This document shows, one piece after another, positions 3,926-56,777 of a DNA stretch of 64,000 bases. A model generated the notes under the pieces. It had not been told where the DNA came from. It ran no database searches and worked only from the letters and a program-made list of their open reading frames with translations. The stretch covers positions 2,792 to 66,791 of the forward strand of contig JAZDHS010000024.1 in the NCBI GenBank assembly GCA_043805735.1, written 5' to 3'. Source of the stretch: Candidatus Omnitrophota bacterium (GTDB lineage Bacteria > Omnitrophota > Gorgyraeia > JAFGHF01). A program made the translations under genes and the position numbers. Position 1 is the stretch's first letter, and the number at the start of each line of letters is the position of its first letter.

Positions 3926-3934
3926 ATGAAGCCC

Positions 3935-4050
3935 AGACTTACGGAGCCGCCGCAAAGCGGCAGGCGAACGTAAGTCTGAGGCTGAATTTATCCCGCCGAG
4001 TGTGCCAAAATTGTCGAAGATAATTTTGGCACATCATACGAGGCGGGATA
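3935..4050 (+). promoter_or_regulatory. Structured RNA spacer: 10-bp hairpin (3935-3978) plus nested 62-nt hairpin (3989-4050) immediately upstream of rpsH SD
   Basis: Perfect inverted repeats CAGACTTACG/CGTAAGTCTG and TATCCCGCC...GTGCCAAAATT/AATTTTGGCAC...GGCGGGATA seen directly; no ORF. Confidence 0.5.
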
Positions 4051-4066
4051 CACAAGGAGTGAAGCA

Positions 4067-4462: not shown

Positions 4463-4574
4463 ATGATAAGTTGTACCCCTCGCATAACCGCTTCCCCCAT
4501 CATATTAGGGAGAGAGGGGATGCGCATGCTTCGGGGTTAATTCGCACAAACTAACGGAGAATAACTGAAGAAGA

Positions 4575-4628
4575 ACAATTTACGTATCGAGTGTAGGCAA
4601 GGACGTAAATTGTGTGCTCATTAAGGAG
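4575..4628 (+). promoter_or_regulatory. Leader hairpin (11-bp perfect stem ACAATTTACGT/ACGTAAATTGT) followed by GTGCTCATTAAGGAG, upstream of rplF
   Basis: Inverted repeat seen directly; same architecture and identical 15-mer found again at 61816-61868 upstream of hup. Confidence 0.5.
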
Positions 4629-4634
4629 CAAACA

Positions 4635-5171
4635 ATGTCGCGAGTAGGTAGAAAACCAATTCCGGTTCCCGAAAATACAAAAGTAGAAATTAAAGACGGC
4701 ACGATTAGTGTAACAGGGCCCAAGGGGCTCTTACAAAGAAAGTTCCACTACCGCATGGCGGTAGAGCTAAAAGACAATACGATTATCGTCAAACGGCCGA
4801 CGGATACGGCTCAAGACCGGGCTCTTCATGGCCTGACGCGCAATCTTATTGCCAATATGGTCATCGGGGTCAATGACGGTTTTAGCAAAGAATTGGAAAT
4901 CCAGGGTATGGGATTCCGCGCCGTAGCTACCGGCAAAACTCTAAATATGCAATTGGGTTTTACCCATCCGATCGACTTTGCGATCCCTGAGGACATTACC
5001 ATTGAGACACCAAAACCGACCCAGATATTCGTTAAGGGCACGGATAAGGAAAAGGTTGGTTTAATCGCGGCAAATATACGCTCTTTTTATCCTCCGGAGC
5101 CTTATAAGGGCCGGGGAATCAGATATAAAGATGAATATGTAAGACGTAAAGTCGGTAAGGCTGTGGCATAA
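4635..5171 (+). CDS. rplF: 50S ribosomal protein L6
   Basis: MSRVGRKPIPVPENTKVEIKDG...; AAGGAG SD at 4623; ORF-track start 4614 is an upstream extension. Confidence 0.9.
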   Translation: MSRVGRKPIPVPENTKVEIKDGTISVTGPKGLLQRKFHYRMAVELKDNTIIVKRPTDTAQDRALHGLTRNLIANMVIGVNDGFSKELEIQGMGFRAVATGKTLNMQLGFTHPIDFAIPEDITIETPKPTQIFVKGTDKEKVGLIAANIRSFYPPEPYKGRGIRYKDEYVRRKVGKAVA

Positions 5172-5209
5172 GACCCCAGCTTAAAGGAATGCTGGGTCTA
5201 TCCTGAAGG
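5171..5209. repeat. REP-like palindromic hairpin element, copy 1 (AGACCCCAGC-TTAAAGGAAT-GCTGGGTCT + ATCCTGAAGG)
   Basis: Exact reverse complement of the core at 51214-51242; begins at rplF stop codon. Confidence 0.7.
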
Positions 5210-5215
5210 ATAACC

Positions 5216-17879: not shown

Positions 17880-18803
17880 ATGAGAATAGCTGTTATTGGC
17901 GCGGGAAATGTCGGGGCGGCAACGGCGATGCGTATCGCCGAAGCGGATTTGGCCGACGTTGTCCTGATCGATATTGTTGAAGGCAAAGCCGCGGGAATCG
18001 CCCTGGATATCTCAAGCGCCTCGGCGATTGTGCGCCACTCGCGTTCTTTAATCGGCAGCAGTGATTACGCTGATCTGGAGGGCGCGGAGATTGTAGTAAT
18101 GACGGCGGGCTTCGCCCGTAAACCCGGGGAAAGCCGCGACGATTTACTGTTGAAAAATGCGGCGGTAGTAAAAGAGGTTGCCGCGCAAATCGCGCGATAT
18201 TGCCCGGAGGCGATTGTCATCGTTGTCACCAATCCCCTGGACGCGATGGCCTACCTGTTGTATAAGACGACTAACTTTGCCTGCGCGCAAATCATCGGCA
18301 TGGGCGGAACCTCGGACTGCGCGCGATTGAATATGCTCATTGCCGATGAGTTAAATACAAACGTGCAAAATATTCAGTCGATGATCATCGGGGCCCATGG
18401 CGACAGCATGGTGGTCTTACCCAGGCTTTGCACAGTCCAGGGCATCCCGATCAGTGATTTATTAAGTGAAGAAAAGGTCAGTGATATTATCGAACAAACG
18501 CGCCATTTTGGCGCCCATGTTGTCGAGCTCTTAGGGCAGGGCAGCGCCTATTATGGCCCCTCCGCCGGGGTACTACAATTAGTCGATGCTATTGTCCACG
18601 ACCGCAAGAGCGTACTCTGTGCCTCTACTTTTATCGACGGGCAATATGGTTTAAACAATATCTTTATCGGCATTCCGGTAAAGATTGGGCGCAGCGGCAT
18701 TGAAGAAATCATCGAGCTGGAGTTAAACGAAGAAGAAAAAACCGATTTTATTTATTCGGTTAACAAGGTAAGAGAAACAATAGAGAAATTAGACCCTGCT
18801 TAA
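17880..18803 (+). CDS. mdh: Malate dehydrogenase (LDH-like family)
   Basis: MRIAVIGAGNVGAATA Rossmann N-terminus; ~308 aa from ATG 17880 (ORF-track 17808 is an extension). Confidence 0.8.
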   Translation: MRIAVIGAGNVGAATAMRIAEADLADVVLIDIVEGKAAGIALDISSASAIVRHSRSLIGSSDYADLEGAEIVVMTAGFARKPGESRDDLLLKNAAVVKEVAAQIARYCPEAIVIVVTNPLDAMAYLLYKTTNFACAQIIGMGGTSDCARLNMLIADELNTNVQNIQSMIIGAHGDSMVVLPRLCTVQGIPISDLLSEEKVSDIIEQTRHFGAHVVELLGQGSAYYGPSAGVLQLVDAIVHDRKSVLCASTFIDGQYGLNNIFIGIPVKIGRSGIEEIIELELNEEEKTDFIYSVNKVRETIEKLDPA

Positions 18804-18830
18804 AAGGAATGCGCAGGTCTATCCTCTGGG
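18791..18830. repeat. REP-like palindromic hairpin element, copy 2 (variant with compensatory stem changes), overlapping mdh stop codon
   Basis: AGACCCTGC-TTAAAAGGAAT-GCGCAGGTCT + ATCCTCTGGG; same loop and flank as copy 1. Confidence 0.65.
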
Positions 18831-18844
18831 ATTAGGAGCCTAGC

Positions 18845-20029
18845 ATGGACGAAGCTAATAGAATGAAAAGATTACCACTGTATCTTTTTACCATTCTTGA
18901 CCATCTTAAAGAAGAGGCAAAAAGTAAAGGCTTGGAAATGGTCGATCTGGGGATGGGCAATCCCGATCTGCCCACACCGAAACATATCATCGATGAACTC
19001 TGTGAGCAGGCCCGTAAACCGGAGAACCACGGTTATCCCCGGCCAAACGAGCCGGCGGAGAAAAAATTAAAACTAGCGATTGCCAACTGGTATAAAGAAC
19101 GTTTTAACGTTGACTTAGACCCACAAACAGAGGTCCTGCCTTTAATCGGTTCCAAAGAAGGCGTGGCTCATCTTTCGCTGGCATTCCTCAATCACGACGA
19201 CATGGCCCTCGTACCCAGTCCAGGATATCCGGTGCACTTTAACGGGGTAGTGATGGCCGGTGGCATCCTTTATAATATCCCGATGACCGAAGAAAATGAT
19301 TTTAAGCCGGATTTAAAAAATATCAGCAAGAGCGTAATCAATATGTCGAAAATGCTTTTCATCAGCTATCCGCATAACCCGACCGGCGCGGTGGTTGACC
19401 TGGATTTTTATAACGAGGTGGCTCATTGGTCAAAGAACAAAGATATTATTATCGCCAGTGACGTGGCCTATTCGGACATCGTCTTTGACGGCTATAAGGC
19501 ACCGAGCATGCTGCAGGTAAAAGGTATTAAAGATAAGGTCATTGAATTCCACACGCTCTCTAAATCTTACAATATGGCCGGCTGGAGGATCGGGTTTGCT
19601 GTCGGCTCAAAAGCGATTATCACCTCGCTGGCAAAAACCAAAAGTTATATCGATTTCGGCATCTTTCCGCCGATTCAATACGCGGCCATCAAGGCCTTAA
19701 GCGGCCCACAGGATTGCGTGAAGCAATTAGTGGAAATCTACAAAAAGAGAATGGATGTATTTGTCGATGGCCTAAACGGCATCGGCTGGAACGTCAAAAA
19801 ACCCAAAGCCACTTTTTATGTCTGGGCGCGGATTCCTTTAAAATATGACGCCCTCACTTCGATGGAATTTGCCGAGCTTTTAGTCAACGAGGCCGGGGTA
19901 GTCGCGGCTCCCGGCATCGGTTTTGGCGAATACGGTGAAGGTTATGTGCGTTTTGCACTCATCGAAGAAGAAAAGAAACTTAAATTGGCCTGCGAACGGA
20001 TCAAAAAAGTATTGGCTATGAGAAGCTAG
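18845..20029 (+). CDS. PLP-dependent aminotransferase class I/II (LL-DAP/alanine aminotransferase-like)
   Basis: 394 aa; SKSYNMAGWRIGF PLP-Lys motif. Confidence 0.7.
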   Translation: MDEANRMKRLPLYLFTILDHLKEEAKSKGLEMVDLGMGNPDLPTPKHIIDELCEQARKPENHGYPRPNEPAEKKLKLAIANWYKERFNVDLDPQTEVLPLIGSKEGVAHLSLAFLNHDDMALVPSPGYPVHFNGVVMAGGILYNIPMTEENDFKPDLKNISKSVINMSKMLFISYPHNPTGAVVDLDFYNEVAHWSKNKDIIIASDVAYSDIVFDGYKAPSMLQVKGIKDKVIEFHTLSKSYNMAGWRIGFAVGSKAIITSLAKTKSYIDFGIFPPIQYAAIKALSGPQDCVKQLVEIYKKRMDVFVDGLNGIGWNVKKPKATFYVWARIPLKYDALTSMEFAELLVNEAGVVAAPGIGFGEYGEGYVRFALIEEEKKLKLACERIKKVLAMRS

Positions 20030-25380: not shown

Positions 25381-26523
25381 ATGGACAGAAGAAATATACT
25401 AATTGTGCACATCTCCAATATCTCCGGCCACCGTGGCGCGAGTATCGCAATTGAAAAAGCTTTGCGAGAAATCAATGCGCCGGCGCAGATCCAGAGTATC
25501 AACGGCTTTGGCTATACTAATCCTCGCGCCGAGAGAGTCATTAACGCCCTCTATATGCTGGTCATCCAGAAAATTCCCGCTTTTTGGGAATATCTCTATG
25601 ACAACGAACGCGTGTTAGAGCGGCTCAAGAAAACCCGGACCTGGATTCATAAACGCCAAGAAAATAAAATTGCCCGGTTATTGGAAGAATACGCGCCTGA
25701 TATTGTGGTCTGCACTCAAGCCTTTCCCTGCGGCATGATCGCCGATTACAAGTGCCGGCACAACCTGCGGATTCCCTTAATGGCAGTATTAACCGACTAT
25801 GCCCCACATGGATACTGGTTACATCAAGGCATCGACATTTATGTTGTTCCCAGCGAAGAGGTAAAATCCCGCTTCATTCAACGCGGAATTGCCCCCGATT
25901 GTCTGATGCCGATCGGTATCCCGGTTAGCCCGGAGTTTTTACAACACCACCAGCGCCCAGAAACCTTCCGGCGCTATAACCTGGCTCCGGAAATCCCCGT
26001 AGCCTTAGTGATGGGCGGAGGCCAGGGCCTGGGACCAATTAAAGAGGTAACAGGACAACTCAATCGCGTATCTAGCCCCTTACAAATAGCGGTTGTCTGC
26101 GGTACAAATAAAAGGCTCTTCCTCTGGCTGAAAAAACGGCAACGCCTTTTTTCTAAACTGACCGTGGTGATTGGGCAAACCGATAACAACGTCATCAGCG
26201 AGCTAATGGATATCGCCGCCTTTATTGTCACCAAGCCCGGCGGCTTAACCACGGCGGAGGCTCTAAGTAAATCTCTGCCGATGATTATTATTGATCCTCT
26301 TCCCGGGCAGGAAAAATTTAATACCCGTTTTCTTCTGGAAGGCAAGGCGGCATTAAAAGTAAATACCCCGCGTGAACTGGGCTCACTTGCAGAAAAGCTG
26401 TTAAAATATCCGCGAGCCCTGCAAGAACTGCGAATGAGAGCAAAGAATCTGGCTTGCCCAGACTCAGCGCTAAAAATCGCTCGGCTGATACTGCAAACCA
26501 TGCAAAGATACAACAAAAACTGA
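25381..26523 (+). CDS. MGDG-synthase-like glycosyltransferase (GT28-type C-terminus; diacylglycerol glycosyltransferase)
   Basis: 380 aa; N-terminal MGDG_synth-like domain, C-terminal GT-B domain. Confidence 0.7.
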   Translation: MDRRNILIVHISNISGHRGASIAIEKALREINAPAQIQSINGFGYTNPRAERVINALYMLVIQKIPAFWEYLYDNERVLERLKKTRTWIHKRQENKIARLLEEYAPDIVVCTQAFPCGMIADYKCRHNLRIPLMAVLTDYAPHGYWLHQGIDIYVVPSEEVKSRFIQRGIAPDCLMPIGIPVSPEFLQHHQRPETFRRYNLAPEIPVALVMGGGQGLGPIKEVTGQLNRVSSPLQIAVVCGTNKRLFLWLKKRQRLFSKLTVVIGQTDNNVISELMDIAAFIVTKPGGLTTAEALSKSLPMIIIDPLPGQEKFNTRFLLEGKAALKVNTPRELGSLAEKLLKYPRALQELRMRAKNLACPDSALKIARLILQTMQRYNKN

Positions 26524-26528
26524 CTCCG

Positions 26529-27416
26529 ATGCTTTACTATTTCTATAAATTCGCCGCGTTTTTAATCGGTATCTTGCCGATACGGGTAACTTATTTCCTG
26601 GCTGAACTTATTGCCAGCGGATATTTCTTTTTCGCCAAAAAAGACAAAATAAATCTGGCCCACAATCTGAGTGTCGTTTTAGAGTATACCCGCAATCCAC
26701 GCAATATCAACCGGGCCAGCCGGATGGTTTTTGTGAATTTTGCCTGGTATTTGGCTGAATTCCTACGCGCCGCAAAATTCGACCTTAATTACCTGCGCTC
26801 GCATGTAGAATTCCAGGGGAAAGAACATTTAGACCAGGCTTTAGAGCTTCGGAAAGGGGTAATCTTGGTCAGCGCGCATCTGGGAAACTGGGAATTAGGC
26901 AGCATGGTTGTCTCGATGTCGGGCTATCCGATGAATATTGTGGCTTGGACGCATAAGGATAAGAAAGTAAATAACTTCTTTATCCAACAGCGGCAAGAGA
27001 AGGGGGTCGCGGTAATTCCTTTGGGTGTAGCGGTAAGAAAGGTACTCACGGCATTAGCGGCTAATCAAGTAGTGGCTTTCGCCGGGGATATCGACTTTGC
27101 CAATCCCAAAGAGGGGATAAAAGTCAAACTTTTCGGTAAAGATACGCTGATGCCCAAAGGCCCAGCTACATTTAGTTTAAAAACCGGCGCGCCGCTGGTA
27201 CCGACTTTTATGATTAGAGAGCATCCGGATCGCTTTAGGCTGATTCTGCAAGCACCGATATTGCCGGAGAGTTCCGGCGACTCTGACGCTGATAGAATAC
27301 GGCTTACTGAAAAAATCGCGCAAAAGATGGAGGCGATGATTGCCCGCTATCCTGAACAATGGTTTATGCCTACCCCGCGTTGGCAAACGCCGCAAAATAG
27401 CAAGGCCGATCGATGA
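26529..27416 (+). CDS. LpxL/HtrB-family lipid A (lauroyl/myristoyl) acyltransferase
   Basis: N-terminal TM, HLGNWE acyltransferase motif; ATG 26529 right after upstream stop. Confidence 0.65.
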   Translation: MLYYFYKFAAFLIGILPIRVTYFLAELIASGYFFFAKKDKINLAHNLSVVLEYTRNPRNINRASRMVFVNFAWYLAEFLRAAKFDLNYLRSHVEFQGKEHLDQALELRKGVILVSAHLGNWELGSMVVSMSGYPMNIVAWTHKDKKVNNFFIQQRQEKGVAVIPLGVAVRKVLTALAANQVVAFAGDIDFANPKEGIKVKLFGKDTLMPKGPATFSLKTGAPLVPTFMIREHPDRFRLILQAPILPESSGDSDADRIRLTEKIAQKMEAMIARYPEQWFMPTPRWQTPQNSKADR

Positions 27417-50041: not shown

Positions 50042-51202
50042 TTGCTCAAGAGAAAAGCACTTGAACAATTAGAAAATAAGTTTCTTGCCAACTATGCGAT
50101 GAAAAGCCGCGATTCTCAAGGGCGAATCCATCCTGAACCGGAACATCCCTACCGCATGGTTTTTCAACGTGACCGCGACCGGATTATCCATTCTACGGCC
50201 TTTCGAAGATTGGAATACAAAACCCAGGTGTTTGTGAACTACGCGGGAGATTATTACCGCACCCGCTTAACCCATACCCTCGAAGTCGCCCAAATCGCCA
50301 AAACGATCGCCCGGGCCCTGCGGCTCAATGAAGACCTTGTAGAGGCGATCGCGCTGGCCCACGACTTGGGGCATACGCCCTTTGGCCACGCCGGTGAAGA
50401 GATACTGCACGAACTAATGAAAGAACACGGCGGGTTTGAACATAATTTGCAGGGTTTAAGGGTAGTTGATTCCCTCGAAGAACGTTACCCCGATTTTAAA
50501 GGCCTGAATTTATGCTGGGAAGTCCGCGAAGGCATCCTCAAACACGTAACTACTTATGACCACCCTAGTGAGCTGATCGAATTTACACGCTATAAGTTTC
50601 CTACCCTGGAGGCCCAGGTTGTCGATGTTGCTGATGAAATCGCTTATGATAATCATGATTTGGACGACGGCATTACCTCCGATTTTATCAATACCAAAGA
50701 TTTGAATAAAGTCGACCTCTGGTCGCAGGCAAAAGAAAAAATTGCTCAAACGCATCCGCGACTGAATGAGGAAATTAAAAAATTCCAGATCATTAAGTTC
50801 CTGATTAATTTACAGGCTCAGGACGTAATCATCTACTCGGAAAAACGACTAAGAAAATCCCACGTGCGTTCTGTGGACGAGGTTCGCCGGGCCCCCGAGC
50901 GCCTGATCAGCTTTAGCCCAGGCGTAGCCAAAAAATGCGCCCAGCTGCGCCAATTCCTCAACCAGCACCTCTATCAGCATTATCAGGTTGTGCGGATGTC
51001 AAATAAGGCCAAAAGATTTATCGAAGAGCTTTTTAAATGTTACGTCGCCAGCCCTAAACAATTACCTCCCACCAGCCTAGCGCGTTCAAAAGATGAAGAC
51101 GTATACAGGGTAGTCTGCGACTACATTGCGGGAATGACCGACCGTTATGCCCAAAATGAGTACCGCCGGCTCTTTCAGCCTTACGAAGAAAAATTAGGGT
51201 AG
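50042..51202 (+). CDS. dgt: dGTPase-like HD-domain triphosphohydrolase
   Basis: 386 aa; RLTHTLEVAQIAK...HDLGHTPFGH. Confidence 0.78.
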   Translation: MLKRKALEQLENKFLANYAMKSRDSQGRIHPEPEHPYRMVFQRDRDRIIHSTAFRRLEYKTQVFVNYAGDYYRTRLTHTLEVAQIAKTIARALRLNEDLVEAIALAHDLGHTPFGHAGEEILHELMKEHGGFEHNLQGLRVVDSLEERYPDFKGLNLCWEVREGILKHVTTYDHPSELIEFTRYKFPTLEAQVVDVADEIAYDNHDLDDGITSDFINTKDLNKVDLWSQAKEKIAQTHPRLNEEIKKFQIIKFLINLQAQDVIIYSEKRLRKSHVRSVDEVRRAPERLISFSPGVAKKCAQLRQFLNQHLYQHYQVVRMSNKAKRFIEELFKCYVASPKQLPPTSLARSKDEDVYRVVCDYIAGMTDRYAQNEYRRLFQPYEEKLG

Positions 51203-51335
51203 CCCAGAGGGGCAGACCCAGCATTCCTTTAAGCTGGGGTCTAACCCTAAAGTATAGGCCTTCGTAATTCCATATTAACGAAGGGCCTAACCCAGTAGGG
51301 TAGACCCCGGCATTCCTGTAAGCTGGGGTCTAAAT
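51199..51335. repeat. Cluster of three hairpins incl. REP-like element copies 3 (51203-51242) and 4 (51291-51331), opposite orientation to copies 1-2
   Basis: CCCAGAGGGGC-AGACCCAGC-ATTCCTTTAAG-CTGGGGTCT and CCCAGTAGGGT-AGACCCCGG-CATTCCTGTAAG-CTGGGGTCT; middle hairpin AGGCCTTCG...CGAAGGGCCT. Confidence 0.7.
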
Positions 51336-51348
51336 TCACTCGTCAACA

Positions 51349-51378
51349 TTGACATTATAGAGACTATTGCGGTATAAT
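51349..51378 (+). promoter_or_regulatory. Promoter TTGACA-18-TATAAT; -10 ends 8 nt before ATG 51387 (leaderless mRNA?)
   Basis: Read directly. Confidence 0.45.
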
Positions 51379-51386
51379 TATAAGCT

Positions 51387-52952
51387 ATGAAAGACAATAG
51401 CGGGTATCAGCAGCAACTTTTTGAGAAACTATCCAAAAGCTACGATCTGAAAAAAGAAAGTGAAATCTTAGGCGGCTTATTTAAAGATTCTTTTCTTTGG
51501 ATAGTGGATAGCGCCTCGGCGCTGGAAGCTGACGCGCAAGGCAAAAAAAACCAGATCAAGCACGTTATCGAACTCTGCGCCCCAGAATCGGACGCTTTGT
51601 GTACCCACCACTGCACCTTGTCGAAAAGTGCGGTGCGCAGTAAATGCCTGGGTTGCATTAGCGGGGCACTCCAGCGGGCAAAAAAAACGCATAGCATTGA
51701 AAAGTTCAGCTGCGATAACCACTTGTACGGGTTATGCTTTCCGCTCTCTCAAGGTGACGCGCTTTACGGCTTTCTCATTTTATGCAGTTTAAAACAGGAA
51801 CCTACCCCTGAATCCCTGCGTTTATTCGAGGCCCTCAATAGCACGATTCTGGAAAAAATCCAAAAAGAACTTGAACTTTCTAAACTATACGAAACTATTC
51901 GGCCAAGAGCCATTGCGCTTTCCACGGTGCACACTATCCACCGGCTGATTAGTTCAAGCCTTGATCTCGACGAGCTGCTTCCGCGCATTGCCCGGCTTTC
52001 TTTACAGGTCTTGCGTTCTAAGCGCTGCCTGATCAGCCTGGTAGACAAAAAAAGCAAGCAATTGGTCTCCAAGGCCTTTATCGATGTCTCCAAAAAGAAG
52101 GCCTGCGTTTCGGCCTTCCAGAAAACCTTAGAAAAAAAGGTCCTGCACAGCGGCCGAATCGTACTCAACAAGGCCTACTTAAGCGTTCCATTCGTCGATG
52201 AAGAACCGCTGGGCGTTATTTCTGTATTCGATAAAATGTCCGGCCGTCCATTTGATAATTTTGACCTGGAAATTCTTAACGCCCTGGCCGAACAAGCCAC
52301 CGGCGCCATTAAGAACGCGCAAATGTATCGTGAACAGGAGCATCTGCTCTCGGGCACGGTCAAATTTATTTCCACGCTTTTAAAGCTTAAATCCGGAGCG
52401 CCATATACGCACTCCAAGCATATTGTTGAAATTATTATGCATATCGCCAAAGAGCTAAGCCTCTCCAGCGAAGAATTGCGCAATTTGCGCTATGCGGCGA
52501 TGCTCCACGATGCGGAAAAAATCGGGATTCCCGAAGAAATCCTCAAGAAACCGACGCCGCTGACAATAAAAGAGTACAAAATTGTCAAAGAGCACCCTAG
52601 AAAAAGCGCGCGTATCTTAAGCCCGATGGAACGCTTAAGGCCAGCGGTAGGAATTATTATGCACCACCATGAAAAATTTGACGGGACGGGCTATCCCGAT
52701 AAATTAAAAGGGGAGCAAATCCCCATCGGTGCGCGCATTATGGCGGTTGCCGACAGCCTGGAGGCAATGATTTCCCTTAGGCCTTATCGCCAGTCGACCA
52801 CTATTGCCGAGGCAATTAAGGAACTTAAAAGTAAAAGCGGTACACAGTTTGACCCGCGAGTAATTAAGGCTTTTTTAAAACTAATTAAGCGAAAAACATT
52901 TAAAAGGCTGCTTAAAGGTATCCAAAATGACCGGTCTAAAAAAAGTCTGTGA
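51387..52952 (+). CDS. GAF-domain HD-GYP c-di-GMP phosphodiesterase
   Basis: 521 aa; HHHEKFDGTGYP HD-GYP signature. Confidence 0.75.
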   Translation: MKDNSGYQQQLFEKLSKSYDLKKESEILGGLFKDSFLWIVDSASALEADAQGKKNQIKHVIELCAPESDALCTHHCTLSKSAVRSKCLGCISGALQRAKKTHSIEKFSCDNHLYGLCFPLSQGDALYGFLILCSLKQEPTPESLRLFEALNSTILEKIQKELELSKLYETIRPRAIALSTVHTIHRLISSSLDLDELLPRIARLSLQVLRSKRCLISLVDKKSKQLVSKAFIDVSKKKACVSAFQKTLEKKVLHSGRIVLNKAYLSVPFVDEEPLGVISVFDKMSGRPFDNFDLEILNALAEQATGAIKNAQMYREQEHLLSGTVKFISTLLKLKSGAPYTHSKHIVEIIMHIAKELSLSSEELRNLRYAAMLHDAEKIGIPEEILKKPTPLTIKEYKIVKEHPRKSARILSPMERLRPAVGIIMHHHEKFDGTGYPDKLKGEQIPIGARIMAVADSLEAMISLRPYRQSTTIAEAIKELKSKSGTQFDPRVIKAFLKLIKRKTFKRLLKGIQNDRSKKSL

Positions 52953-55022: not shown

Positions 55023-55630
55023 CCCTTTTTTTCATCGCCCTTTTTCTGCTGGCGGTTATTATTCATGAAGTTGCCCACGGATGGATGGCCAATAAGCTGG
55101 GAGATCCGACCGCAAAATTCGCTGGCCGTCTCACGCTTAACCCAATCGCCCACATCGACCCGATGGGAACGATACTTTTTCCTTTATTGCTTTCTTTAAG
55201 CGGATCGCCAATAGTTTTCGGCTGGGCCAAGCCAGTGCCGATCAATTTCGCTCTCCTGCGCAATGGCAAAAAGGGCCTCCTTTTAGTCAGCGCCGCGGGC
55301 ATCGGCGCAAATGCGGTCTTGGCGGTTTTGTTTGCGCTGCTACTAAGGATGGGGCTTTTTCCGTATAATAGCTATGGTTGGGTATTTTTGAATTACGGCA
55401 TCATGGTAAACCTGGTGCTCGCGGTCTTCAATGCCATTCCCATACCGCCTTTGGATGGCTCAAAGATTGTCTTGAGCATTTTACCAAAAGAGCTTGCCAA
55501 TACTTACCTGAAAATTGAACCTTACGGCTTTGTGATATTGCTCGGCCTGGCGTGGCTGGGATTATTAGGCCGAGTCATTTGGCCGGTAGTTACTTTTGCC
55601 TCCCGTTTATTAGGAGCAGGCATCTTATGA
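55019..55630 (+). CDS. Site-2 protease family (M50) membrane metalloprotease, short form
   Basis: HEVAHGWMA HExxH in TM1. Confidence 0.75.
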   Translation: MTLFFIALFLLAVIIHEVAHGWMANKLGDPTAKFAGRLTLNPIAHIDPMGTILFPLLLSLSGSPIVFGWAKPVPINFALLRNGKKGLLLVSAAGIGANAVLAVLFALLLRMGLFPYNSYGWVFLNYGIMVNLVLAVFNAIPIPPLDGSKIVLSILPKELANTYLKIEPYGFVILLGLAWLGLLGRVIWPVVTFASRLLGAGIL

Positions 55631-55631
55631 A

Positions 55632-55682
55632 CCCCGCCCTTCCTAAGAGGGTGGGGAATAGATTGAAAGGAAGGGCGGGGTG
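55632..55682 (+). promoter_or_regulatory. 13-bp GC-rich hairpin CCCCGCCCTTCCT...AGGAAGGGCGGGG sequestering SD and GUG start of aroB
   Basis: Perfect inverted repeat seen directly; 3' arm ends on G of GTG start. Confidence 0.5.
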
Positions 55683-56777
55683 AAACGAATTCGCGTAAAG
55701 CTTGGTCAACGCAGCTATGATATCATTATCGGCCACGGAACGCTCAACCGGCTCACCCGGCTGCTCGGCGCTTTCTCTTTAAGTAAAGTTGCCCTGGTCA
55801 TCACCAACCCCACCATTTATCGTCTTTACGGCGAAAAGTTAAAAACACTGTTGGCGCATGCCGGCTATGAAGTGTATTGCGAAGAAGTGCCGGATAGCGA
55901 AGAAAGTAAATCTTTCGCGGTCTGCACACGCCTGGTGGCCAGATGCGCAGAATTAGACGGGGGAAGGGGCATTTTTATTATTGCTTTAGGTGGGGGGGTA
56001 ATCGGCGACCTTGCCGGCTTCTGCGCGTCAATTTATCACCGGGGTATCCCGTATGTACAAATTCCGACAACGCTATTGGCCCAGGTAGACTCAAGTATTG
56101 GCGGTAAAGTGGCCCTGGACCTCGCTTGCGGAAAAAATTTAGTCGGCTCTTTCTACCAGCCGCTTTTAGTCTTGAGTGATATCGACTTTTTGGCGAGCTT
56201 AGAAGAAAAACAAATCCGTAACGCGCTCGCTGAGATTATTAAATACGGCGTTATTGCCGATCGGCAATTATTCTGTTTCCTGGAACGCTCTGTTGACGAT
56301 ATTCTTAAACGCGACCGAAAAAAGCTGCAGCATATCGTCGAGGTATGCAGCCGGATAAAGACGCGCGTAGTGGAACGGGACGAATACGACAATAAGGGCA
56401 AGCGCATGACTCTCAACTTCGGCCATACTATCGGCCATGCGCTTGAAGCCGCATATGACTATTCGGCACAACTGCCCCATGGTTTCGCCATCGCCATCGG
56501 GATGCTCGTTGCCGGTGATATCGCTTTACGCCTGGGCCTAGTTGGCGAAAGTACGCTCCGGCGTATCGAAACCTTAATCCGCAAAGCCGGTCTTCCTACT
56601 CAGATGAGCGGGGTAACGATCGAAAAGATTATTGCCGCCCAGGCTCACGATAAGAAGTTTAACTTAGGCAAAAACCGTTTTGTCCTTCCGGTACGTATCG
56701 GTAAAGTAATCATAAAAGAGGGCGTTGCGCAAAAAGTTATCGTCAACGCCCTGCACGCCAGAATGCAACGTGTCTAA
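55680..56777 (+). CDS. aroB: 3-dehydroquinate synthase (GTG start)
   Basis: 365 aa; GGGVIGDLAGF...NFGHTIGHALE. Confidence 0.85.
   Translation: MKRIRVKLGQRSYDIIIGHGTLNRLTRLLGAFSLSKVALVITNPTIYRLYGEKLKTLLAHAGYEVYCEEVPDSEESKSFAVCTRLVARCAELDGGRGIFIIALGGGVIGDLAGFCASIYHRGIPYVQIPTTLLAQVDSSIGGKVALDLACGKNLVGSFYQPLLVLSDIDFLASLEEKQIRNALAEIIKYGVIADRQLFCFLERSVDDILKRDRKKLQHIVEVCSRIKTRVVERDEYDNKGKRMTLNFGHTIGHALEAAYDYSAQLPHGFAIAIGMLVAGDIALRLGLVGESTLRRIETLIRKAGLPTQMSGVTIEKIIAAQAHDKKFNLGKNRFVLPVRIGKVIIKEGVAQKVIVNALHARMQRV

Follow-up and report, generated by a model that had tools for sequence, protein, structure and literature searches.

Repetitive extragenic palindromic (REP) sequences of E. coli carry a stem bulge that is needed for cleavage (PMC8266576), and REPs supply stop codons, occur within open reading frames (ORFs) and form head-to-tail dimers (PMC3733652). 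The latter text also gives MITEs, miniature transposable elements with inverted repeats, a size of 70-300 bp and terminal inverted repeats (TIRs) of 15-30 bp, and the MITEs of bacteria have TA-containing ends and target duplications (PMC2229807, PMC5896051). Here we describe a family of small double-hairpin repeats in a 64,000-nucleotide stretch of Candidatus Omnitrophota bacterium DNA (assembly GCA_043805735.1, contig JAZDHS010000024.1, positions 2,792 to 66,791 of the forward strand), which is referred to below as the window. The repeats stand at the 3′ ends of rplF, mdh and dgt, and we propose that they are very probably copies of a non-autonomous miniature mobile element, which would insert at a T-W-A triplet.

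Copies of the hairpin repeat in the window

A sequence-only reading of the window had reported a 29-nt core, AGACCCAGCATTCCTTTAAGCTGGGGTCT, that stands at 51214-51242 and recurs, exactly reverse-complemented, at 5171-5199. This is correct, and no such match arose in 100 shuffles; two further copies to which it had drawn attention, at 18791-18820 as delimited here and at 51302-51331, are equally real, with none expected by chance. A covariance model was built from the five window copies, and the whole window was scored with it with filters off. The model recovered copies A, B, C and D at E about 1e-15 and nothing else that was credible in the window. The copies and the features adjoining them are listed below; for all comparisons the copies were read in one orientation, A from 5171 (+), B from 18791 (+), C from 51242 (-) and D from 51331 (-).

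5169-5213, + strand: copy A (61.6 bits, E 6.6e-15); TAA at 5169-5171 is both the rplF stop and the 5′ triplet; large hairpin 5171-5199; small hairpin 5200-5211; second TAA at 5211-5213
18789-18834, + strand: copy B (60.5 bits); TTA at 18789-18791; large hairpin 18791-18820; small hairpin 18821-18832; second TTA at 18832-18834
18832-18844, + strand: relic of the mdh end, displaced by copy B; TTA GGA GCC TAG plus C, just 5′ of the ATG at 18845
51200-51244, - strand: copy C (64.5 bits); large hairpin 51214-51242, with no difference from copy A; small hairpin 51202-51213; on the outer side the dgt stop TAG at 51200-51202 forms the triplet, and the inner TAA at 51242-51244 is common to copies C and M
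51242-51290, - strand: copy M, diverged (partial model match, E 0.08); large hairpin 51256-51288 (arms AGGCCCTTCG / CGAAGGCCT, loop TTAATATGGAATTA); decayed small hairpin 51244-51255; triplets in common with C and D
51288-51333, - strand: copy D (66.3 bits); large hairpin 51302-51331, no bulge; small hairpin 51290-51301; triplets TAA at 51288-51290 and 51331-51333
51349-51378, + strand: sigma-70-type promoter of the GAF/HD-GYP gene, matching the consensus at 12/12 positions, directly after the array

Each copy begins with a large hairpin that has a 10-nt 5′ arm with one extra C, a 9-nt 3′ arm and a TTAAAGGAAT-type loop, giving a stem of 9-10 bp and a span of 29-33 nt, which lies inside the REP palindrome range of 20-50 nt. 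Directly 3′ of it, every window copy has a 12-nt mini-hairpin with a 4-bp stem, in the forms ATCC-TGAA-GGAT, ATCC-TCTG-GGAT, GCCC-CTCT-GGGC and ACCC-TACT-GGGT; what had been recorded earlier as a conserved CCCAGAGG-like flank is this second hairpin. T-W-A triplets stand on both sides of every window copy, TAA...TAA for A and TTA...TTA for B and D, and the array copies C, M and D have triplets in common, the outermost being the dgt stop TAG, which is CTA on the element strand. The body of the element is thus about 40-44 nt and contains no gene of its own; a mini-ORF (ATG CTG GGT CTA TCC TGA) was considered and dropped, as it lacks usable Shine-Dalgarno spacing. We found no TIRs in these copies, the ends being GACCC... 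and ...GGA, with a 6-7 nt 'ACCC(C)AG'-like resemblance in some copies only.

Between the dgt stop and the GAF/HD-GYP promoter, copies D, M and C follow one another head to tail as an array on the minus strand; the earlier reading had correctly described the 184-nt dgt/HD-GYP spacer as holding three hairpins back to back. The middle hairpin has the same 10/9-nt arms, the extra C and a TTAA..GGAAT loop, differs from copy A by five stem pairs that are changed on both sides, and resembles AGGCCC...GGCCT variants that recur in the metagenome contigs L114 and L135; judged by its sequence, it is a fifth, diverged member of the family. Copy D has an A.C mismatch on the element strand that is a G.U pair on the + strand, as the sequence-only reading had stated of its fourth copy. 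Relative to the upstream gene, A and B are in the sense orientation and C, M and D are antisense.

Copy A occupies the whole rplF-rplR spacer. Its mini-hairpin differs from related ones in the loop alone, TGAA versus TCTG, and this change creates in the 3′ half of the mini-hairpin (within 5200-5215) the sequence GAAGGA, 5 nt upstream of the rplR ATG. Copy A therefore seems to be the source of the rplR ribosome-binding site, which would not have been needed at the ancestral, overlapping junction described below. Copy B lies within the 3′ end of mdh and replaces merely the last two mdh codons, so that the ORF ends in ...EKLDPA*. The earlier claim that this copy overlaps the mdh stop codon holds insofar as the new stop, TAA at 18801-18803, is within the element; it lies in the loop, however, and not at the 5′ edge.

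Genes are very densely packed in the window, where the median spacer measures 4 nt, and nearly all of them lie on the + strand; TAA is the commonest stop codon (46 of the 81 genes). About 37% of the tolerable TA sites in the window are in or adjacent to stops, so that the location of three of three loci at stops is of marginal significance (p ~0.05). No intragenic copy was found in the window. A weak model match at 25749-25794 in the MGDG-synthase gene was put down to chance, since the protein has no insertion there relative to its orthologues, and a supposed gene-free stretch of 653 nt (26524-27176) turned out to be covered by an ORF at 26454-27416. The GAF/HD-GYP promoter consists of TTGACA, an 18-nt spacer and TATAAT, and has the same layout in the relatives L087 and L088; its end lies just 8 nt from the ATG (51349-51389), which implies a leaderless or nearly leaderless mRNA.

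Empty sites and the family in relatives

Comparison with related genomes indicates what the three loci would look like if they had no repeat. When 18790-18832 (the element plus one TA/TTA) is deleted, mdh ends in ...IEKLGA*, with a single base between this stop and the ATG of the aminotransferase gene. Among 21 Omnitrophota orthologues, Mdh mostly ends in LGA or LGV (three differ), and the mdh/aminotransferase junction in the relatives L081-L084 reads GTA GGA GCG TAA G ATG or CTA GGA GTT TGA T ATG. The displaced relic in the window (GGA GCC TAG) retains the AGGAG ribosome-binding site of the aminotransferase gene. At the ribosomal locus, the rplF stop of L086 overlaps the rplR ATG (GCATAATG), and the site is therefore empty there. 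The dgt/HD-GYP spacer, 184 nt in the window, is 50 nt long and promoter-bearing in the syntenic relatives L087 and L088, and removal of the 131-nt array from the window leaves 53 nt. An empty/filled pair is also seen between metagenome contigs, L137 having CACATTTTACGAGG where L181 has ACATT-TTA(element)TTA-CGAGG, and in L187 taking out two nested copies restores an end of ...SLIKNLGV*. These sequence comparisons show the copies to be insertions. A model match in the map gene of L086 (14032-14063) forms no hairpin and was attributed to chance.

The family extends well beyond the window. The covariance model identified two copies, of 45.8 and 41.6 bits, in a relative's metagenome-assembled genome (MAG), GCA_016783405.1 (L088). 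One is in aroB and the other, in reverse orientation, in thiE; both are 45 nt long and TTA- or TAA-flanked, and each of the two proteins gains 15 residues that are absent from the proteins of the window and of another relative. A pattern that fits all six clean copies, and that fixes AGACCC, AGGAAT and GGTCT, gave 116 matches in 104 metagenome contigs (L089-L192), a few of them chance matches with unpaired stems, and among the first 100 of the 104 contigs the covariance model made 116 hits at E < 1e-3. Overall, more than 110 further copies were found in the relative MAG and in metagenome contigs from several sources. Seventeen metagenome contigs carry genes 38-81% identical to window proteins, and several are clearly syntenic with the window, so that at least these belong to Omnitrophota relatives. 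Independent insertions in relatives lie at the pfk stop, at a pilT-like/leuD-like junction, between ribosomal protein genes, at the mdh end and after rplF. Metagenome and viral scans that required AGGAATGC had no match, and most relatives are without AGGAATGC; a genome-contig scan with a loose pattern gave 80 chance matches, none of them element-like. No such element was described in the top-ranked part of the large literature on Omnitrophota or Omnitrophica repeat elements, a weak negative, and the family appears to be undescribed in Omnitrophota, a phylum represented almost entirely by metagenome data.

The metagenome copies made it possible to examine the properties of the family as a population. 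Among 104 unique copies, the flanking triplets were TAA/TAA in 45, TTA/TTA in 38 and CTA/CTA in 3; concordance between the two sides (87 of the 104) was highly significant (Fisher p = 6e-19) and persisted in a subfamily with a CTGT small loop (p = 0.002) and for non-tandem copies (p = 7e-14). Most copies thus have identical triplets on their two sides, and one triplet stands at the empty sites, which is the pattern of a target duplication. The size of the insertion is 43-47 nt with a mode of 45. Of 19 copies that lie inside long ORFs, 18 are exactly 45 nt and hence in frame, as compared with 34 of 89 copies elsewhere; the ORFs that hold these 45-nt copies have Pfam domains, which identify them as real host genes, among them those for a CDC48-like AAA ATPase, an HI0933-like flavoprotein, an MFS transporter and a phosphoribosyltransferase. 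Copies adjacent to stops occur in the same orientation as the ORF in 11 cases and in the opposite orientation in 12, and the stop codon itself is the flanking triplet in 8 of these 23.

Both hairpins of the repeat are preserved by changes that maintain pairing. Over 104 distinct copies, 91.3% of the alignment cells are paired, eight pairs are changed on both sides, and the third pair (a3) is seen as A-T, G-C, C-G and T-A; none of 500 shuffles reached the observed values, and slid controls were 20-55% paired. The pair-preserving stem variation that had been claimed earlier is thereby upheld, except that the 'CCTGCG' arm is absent from copy B, the stem of which is CC-TGC/GCA-GG. The extra C of the 5′ arm is present in 74 of 80 unique copies (93%). 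The earlier view that the hairpins are a repeat family and not chance palindromes is borne out.

Copies are also found joined to one another. Head-to-tail arrays with one common triplet occur not only in the window (D-M-C) but also in L158, which has three copies, and in L107, L136 and L159. Nested copies, with one element in the loop TTA/TAA of another, occur in L187 (1830-1950, minus strand) and L182 (1125-1223). These nests are at two gene ends that are also occupied in the window, the 3′ end of mdh and the region after rplF, but at other nucleotide positions, and so represent independent hits on the same gene ends.

Proposed mobility of the element and alternative explanations

We propose that the element would insert at T-W-A (TAA or TTA, rarely CTA), after which the same triplet would stand on each side. 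Few insertions would survive, because the genomes have almost no intergenic DNA; the survivors would be those at TAA stops, where the stop is regenerated, those in last codons, where a new short tail and stop are supplied, those in spacers, and 45-nt insertions that are in frame within genes. The position of copies exactly at stops would follow from the target triplet, since TAA serves as target and is also the stop codon used most often, and few other sites would tolerate insertion, given the median spacer of 4 nt. Because the element ends and the loop contain TTA or TAA, new copies would also land beside or inside old ones and give rise to the arrays and nests. The retention of both hairpins, the extra C and the loop in either orientation and also when the copy is translated implies a constraint on the element as DNA. 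A trans-acting enzyme encoded elsewhere would recognize the folded element, probably as single-stranded DNA, and effects on the host, such as hairpins at mRNA 3′ ends and the rplR ribosome-binding site contributed by copy A, would be by-products or later co-option. If this is the case, then the hairpins that start at stops, and the one in the spc operon, are explained without a new regulatory RNA.

Several observations weigh against this proposal. Only 5 copies at 3 loci are present in the 64-kb window. The polarity of insertion rests on parsimony and the mdh relic, because the relatives with empty sites are distant (60-81% protein identity), and conservation at AGACCC, AGGAAT and GGTCT is partly imposed by the search, since the pattern fixes them. 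Pfam assignments for about 50 of the approximately 80 window genes include no transposase, no transposase or recombinase adjoins the metagenome copies examined, and a phmmer search of 1839 ORFs (~0.6 Mb) for a TnpA of the IS200/IS605 type or an ORF like a REP-associated tyrosine transposase (RAYT) was empty, although the query was approximate and the test a weak one. The flanking triplets fit equally a target-site duplication and insertion beside a triplet that equals the element's own end. The small loop tracks the middle base W of the triplet, with TTTA accompanying TTA (30:1) and CTGT accompanying TAA (22:3), an association that is not predicted by a plain model of a staggered cut with target duplication. 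Finally, individual copies may possibly have RNA roles at the level of the host.

A layout in L107 and L173 in which genes stand between inverted copies, as in a REPtron, was rejected because the enclosed genes are ordinary, and the one real large hairpin without a small hairpin, in L178, is followed by the gene for a signalling protein and not by one for a transposase. A gene of the Transposase_mut/MULE (IS256-type) family at 18403-19659 of L088 lies near the contig end and has no evident tie to the hairpin family.

With regard to mechanism, the cues conflict: the matching triplets argue for a staggered-cut enzyme of the DDE type, and the covariation and lack of TIRs argue for structure-specific recognition by an HUH-type enzyme or a recombinase. 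One hypothesis, which we consider a tentative one that falls clearly short of an even chance, is that the hairpins are REPs that an HUH tyrosine transposase (TnpA-REP), present in single copy, spreads by acting on them in single-stranded form. The size of the palindrome, an xTAG tag (TTAG or TAAG) 5′ of the stem and the conserved stem irregularity, as in E. coli REPs, are in keeping with it, as are the stop codons, the location within ORFs and the head-to-tail dimers known for REPs and the preservation of structure irrespective of the direction of transcription. However, the tag reads T-W-A-G where REPs have GTAG or CGTC, and the T-W-A in it, which varies with the 3′ flank, has the behaviour of target sequence. 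Nor is the obligatory mini-hairpin a feature of REPs, the arrays are head-to-tail and not inverted pairs of the kind found in bacterial interspersed mosaic elements (BIMEs) or REPINs, the accessible parts of PMC8266576 and PMC3733652 make no mention of matching flanking triplets, and the RAYT search, weak as it was, came up empty. The REP/BIME-like label attached to the hairpins by the sequence-only reading is therefore in broadly the right neighbourhood, while the REP tag and the inverted pairing are lacking.

A second hypothesis, which seems somewhat more doubtful, is that the element is a cut-and-paste, Tourist-like MITE mobilized in double-stranded form by a DDE transposase, either of IS5 (IS1031 group) or of the PIF/Harbinger type, that makes a 3-bp staggered cut at TWA. 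The matching TAA/TAA, TTA/TTA and CTA/CTA flanks are what such an enzyme would leave, 3-bp TWA or TNA duplications being typical of PIF/Harbinger and the IS1031 group. Against this, the copies have no TIRs and their ~40-nt body is far below MITE sizes; pair-preserving change in two internal hairpins and an extrahelical C would be unexpected if ends were recognized in double-stranded DNA; and the association of subfamily with W implies an oriented reading of the otherwise symmetric TWA.

It is also conceivable, but in our view improbable, that the hairpins are host cis-regulatory RNAs, that is, 3′ stabilizers, processing sites or terminators that lack a U-tract, maintained by selection on the transcript. 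Folding of the hairpins is indeed predicted for both strands (individual copies have z-scores between -0.75 and -4.2, the array one of -5.1), and they lie at gene 3′ ends; copy D has its G.U pair on the transcribed strand, copy A carries the rplR Shine-Dalgarno sequence, and transcripts of MITEs and REPs are known to affect mRNA stability (PMC2229807). Both orientations occur, however, though the conserved loop is not palindromic, the orthologous junctions of relatives are empty, some copies are translated in frame within enzymes, and copies nest in each other. A T-run is absent 3′ of every window copy and a terminator scan of 50900-51500 was empty, whereas canonical hairpin-plus-T-run terminators are present elsewhere in the window, in agreement with the earlier judgement that the hairpins are not simple terminators. 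An Rfam 15 scan of the window placed tRNA alone above the gathering threshold, the best spacer match, isrJ, scoring 24.6 bits where 37 is the threshold. The further claim of the sequence-only reading, that the covariation points to selection on RNA and hence to a role in mRNA stabilization or processing, finds no support, in view of the occurrence of both orientations, the in-frame copies and the empty orthologous junctions. That the hairpins are chance palindromes or assembly artefacts, for which nothing speaks beyond the low copy number in the window, is refuted by the E-values of about 1e-15 where zero matches are expected and by more than 110 independent copies in other assemblies.

Other repeats of the window and comparison with known systems

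The window contains other repeats that occupy gene junctions. A second hairpin family is represented at 55627-55684, where CCCCGCCCTTCC...GGAAGGGCGGGG fills the 49-nt spacer from an M50-like gene (TGA at 55628-55630) to aroB (GTG at 55680). Direct TGAA repeats stand on both sides, and removal yields TTATGAAAC, an ATGA stop/start overlap; the M50-like/aroB junction of L087 reads TTATAATGAAA. Copies of this family in L081-L085, L121 and L138 have the same arms and loops of 23-102 nt, the TGA being often the upstream stop, and their flanks are TGAA in most, with TGAG or TAAA on one side in two. The rpsN-rpsH spacer (3926-4066, notably 3990-4048) contains two long stable hairpins, the second of which consists of ATCCCGCCGAGTGTGCCAAAATT...AATTTTGGCACA...CGAGGCGGGAT and recurs at 88-91% identity in L137, L161, L155, L181, L099 and L107; L181 has a main-family copy inserted within such a repeat, at a TTA. 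The rpsH-rplF spacer (4463-4613) is also structured. A 57-nt segment of it (~4528-4584) is 89% identical to 6072-6128 of L088, which lies at a non-orthologous thiC/pfkB position, and shorter segments are common to L181, L137, L191 and L085, so that by sequence similarity the segment is probably a fourth repeat family. With the rplF-rplR copy, three consecutive spacers of the spc operon are occupied by repeats.

One could envision that the double hairpins constitute a separate class of REP-sized elements, without TIRs and with matching T-W-A flanks, in which the element itself reads the target and stop codons are the safe sites. We regard this as a speculative suggestion that is probably not correct as it stands. 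In 83 copies the small loop ends in a base complementary to W (33 copies have A with T, 50 have T with A), and 20 copies are exceptions; this recalls the pairing of guide and target in IS200/IS605 elements. The link between W and the loop could reflect either shared ancestry or such a guide-like reading of the target. If a separate class does exist, it would rank with the smallest known transposable units and would remodel proteins in frame, 15 residues at a time, across a candidate phylum, and its stop-codon strategy would be common to the TGAA-flanked second family, which overlaps TGA stops. The family is relevant to the annotation of MAGs and to the reading of protein insertions, as it accounts for altered C-termini, 15-residue segments and one ribosome-binding site.

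Four groups of described sequences are the closest to the family. The attC sites of integrons are imperfect hairpins in which extrahelical bases mark one strand, which lie at gene 3′ ends and recombine at a short core triplet. The hairpin family is much shorter, has no R''/L''-L'/R' layout, integrase or cassette array, and its hosts are core housekeeping genes in conserved synteny; an attC-like reading was dropped for this mismatch of layout and context, GTTAGAC fitting GTTRRRY in copy C only. Rickettsia palindromic elements (RPEs) are in-frame palindromes in housekeeping genes that lengthen the product by a short peptide, and many unrelated proteins tolerate them (PMC10969869). RPEs are, however, 105-150 bp in length and belong to Rickettsia, whereas the hairpin family is 45 nt long, belongs to Omnitrophota and includes copies that are translated in several frames and in either orientation, most copies lying between genes or at stops.

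Bacterial MITEs (RUP/IS630, Correia/NEMIS, Coxiella QMITE1/2) and Tourist-like TWA elements resemble the family in being non-coding, multi-copy and hairpin-forming, with TA-containing flanks; they overlap gene 3′ ends and alter C-termini by a few residues (PMC5896051) and can lie within genes (PMC2229807). They differ in that the hairpin family is 3-7 times smaller (~45 nt versus 100-400 bp), lacks TIRs, has compensatory internal hairpins and has no known parent insertion sequence. REP, BIME and REPIN sequences (PMC8266576, PMC3733652) are likewise imperfect palindromes of 20-50 nt with a stem irregularity and a 5′ tag, mostly just downstream of genes and in clusters. Unlike these, the hairpin family has a T-W-A-G tag of which the T-W-A is repeated on the far side, a second, 4-bp hairpin, head-to-tail arrays on one triplet, and a conserved loop with a drifting stem sequence. 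The family thus appears, as far as its sequences indicate, to act as a selfish repeat of the REP, MITE or RPE type and yet to be a member of none of those named families, and its mixture of traits (size, an extrahelical base, no TIRs and matching triplets) places it between the three categories and points to an as yet unassigned mechanism of transposition.

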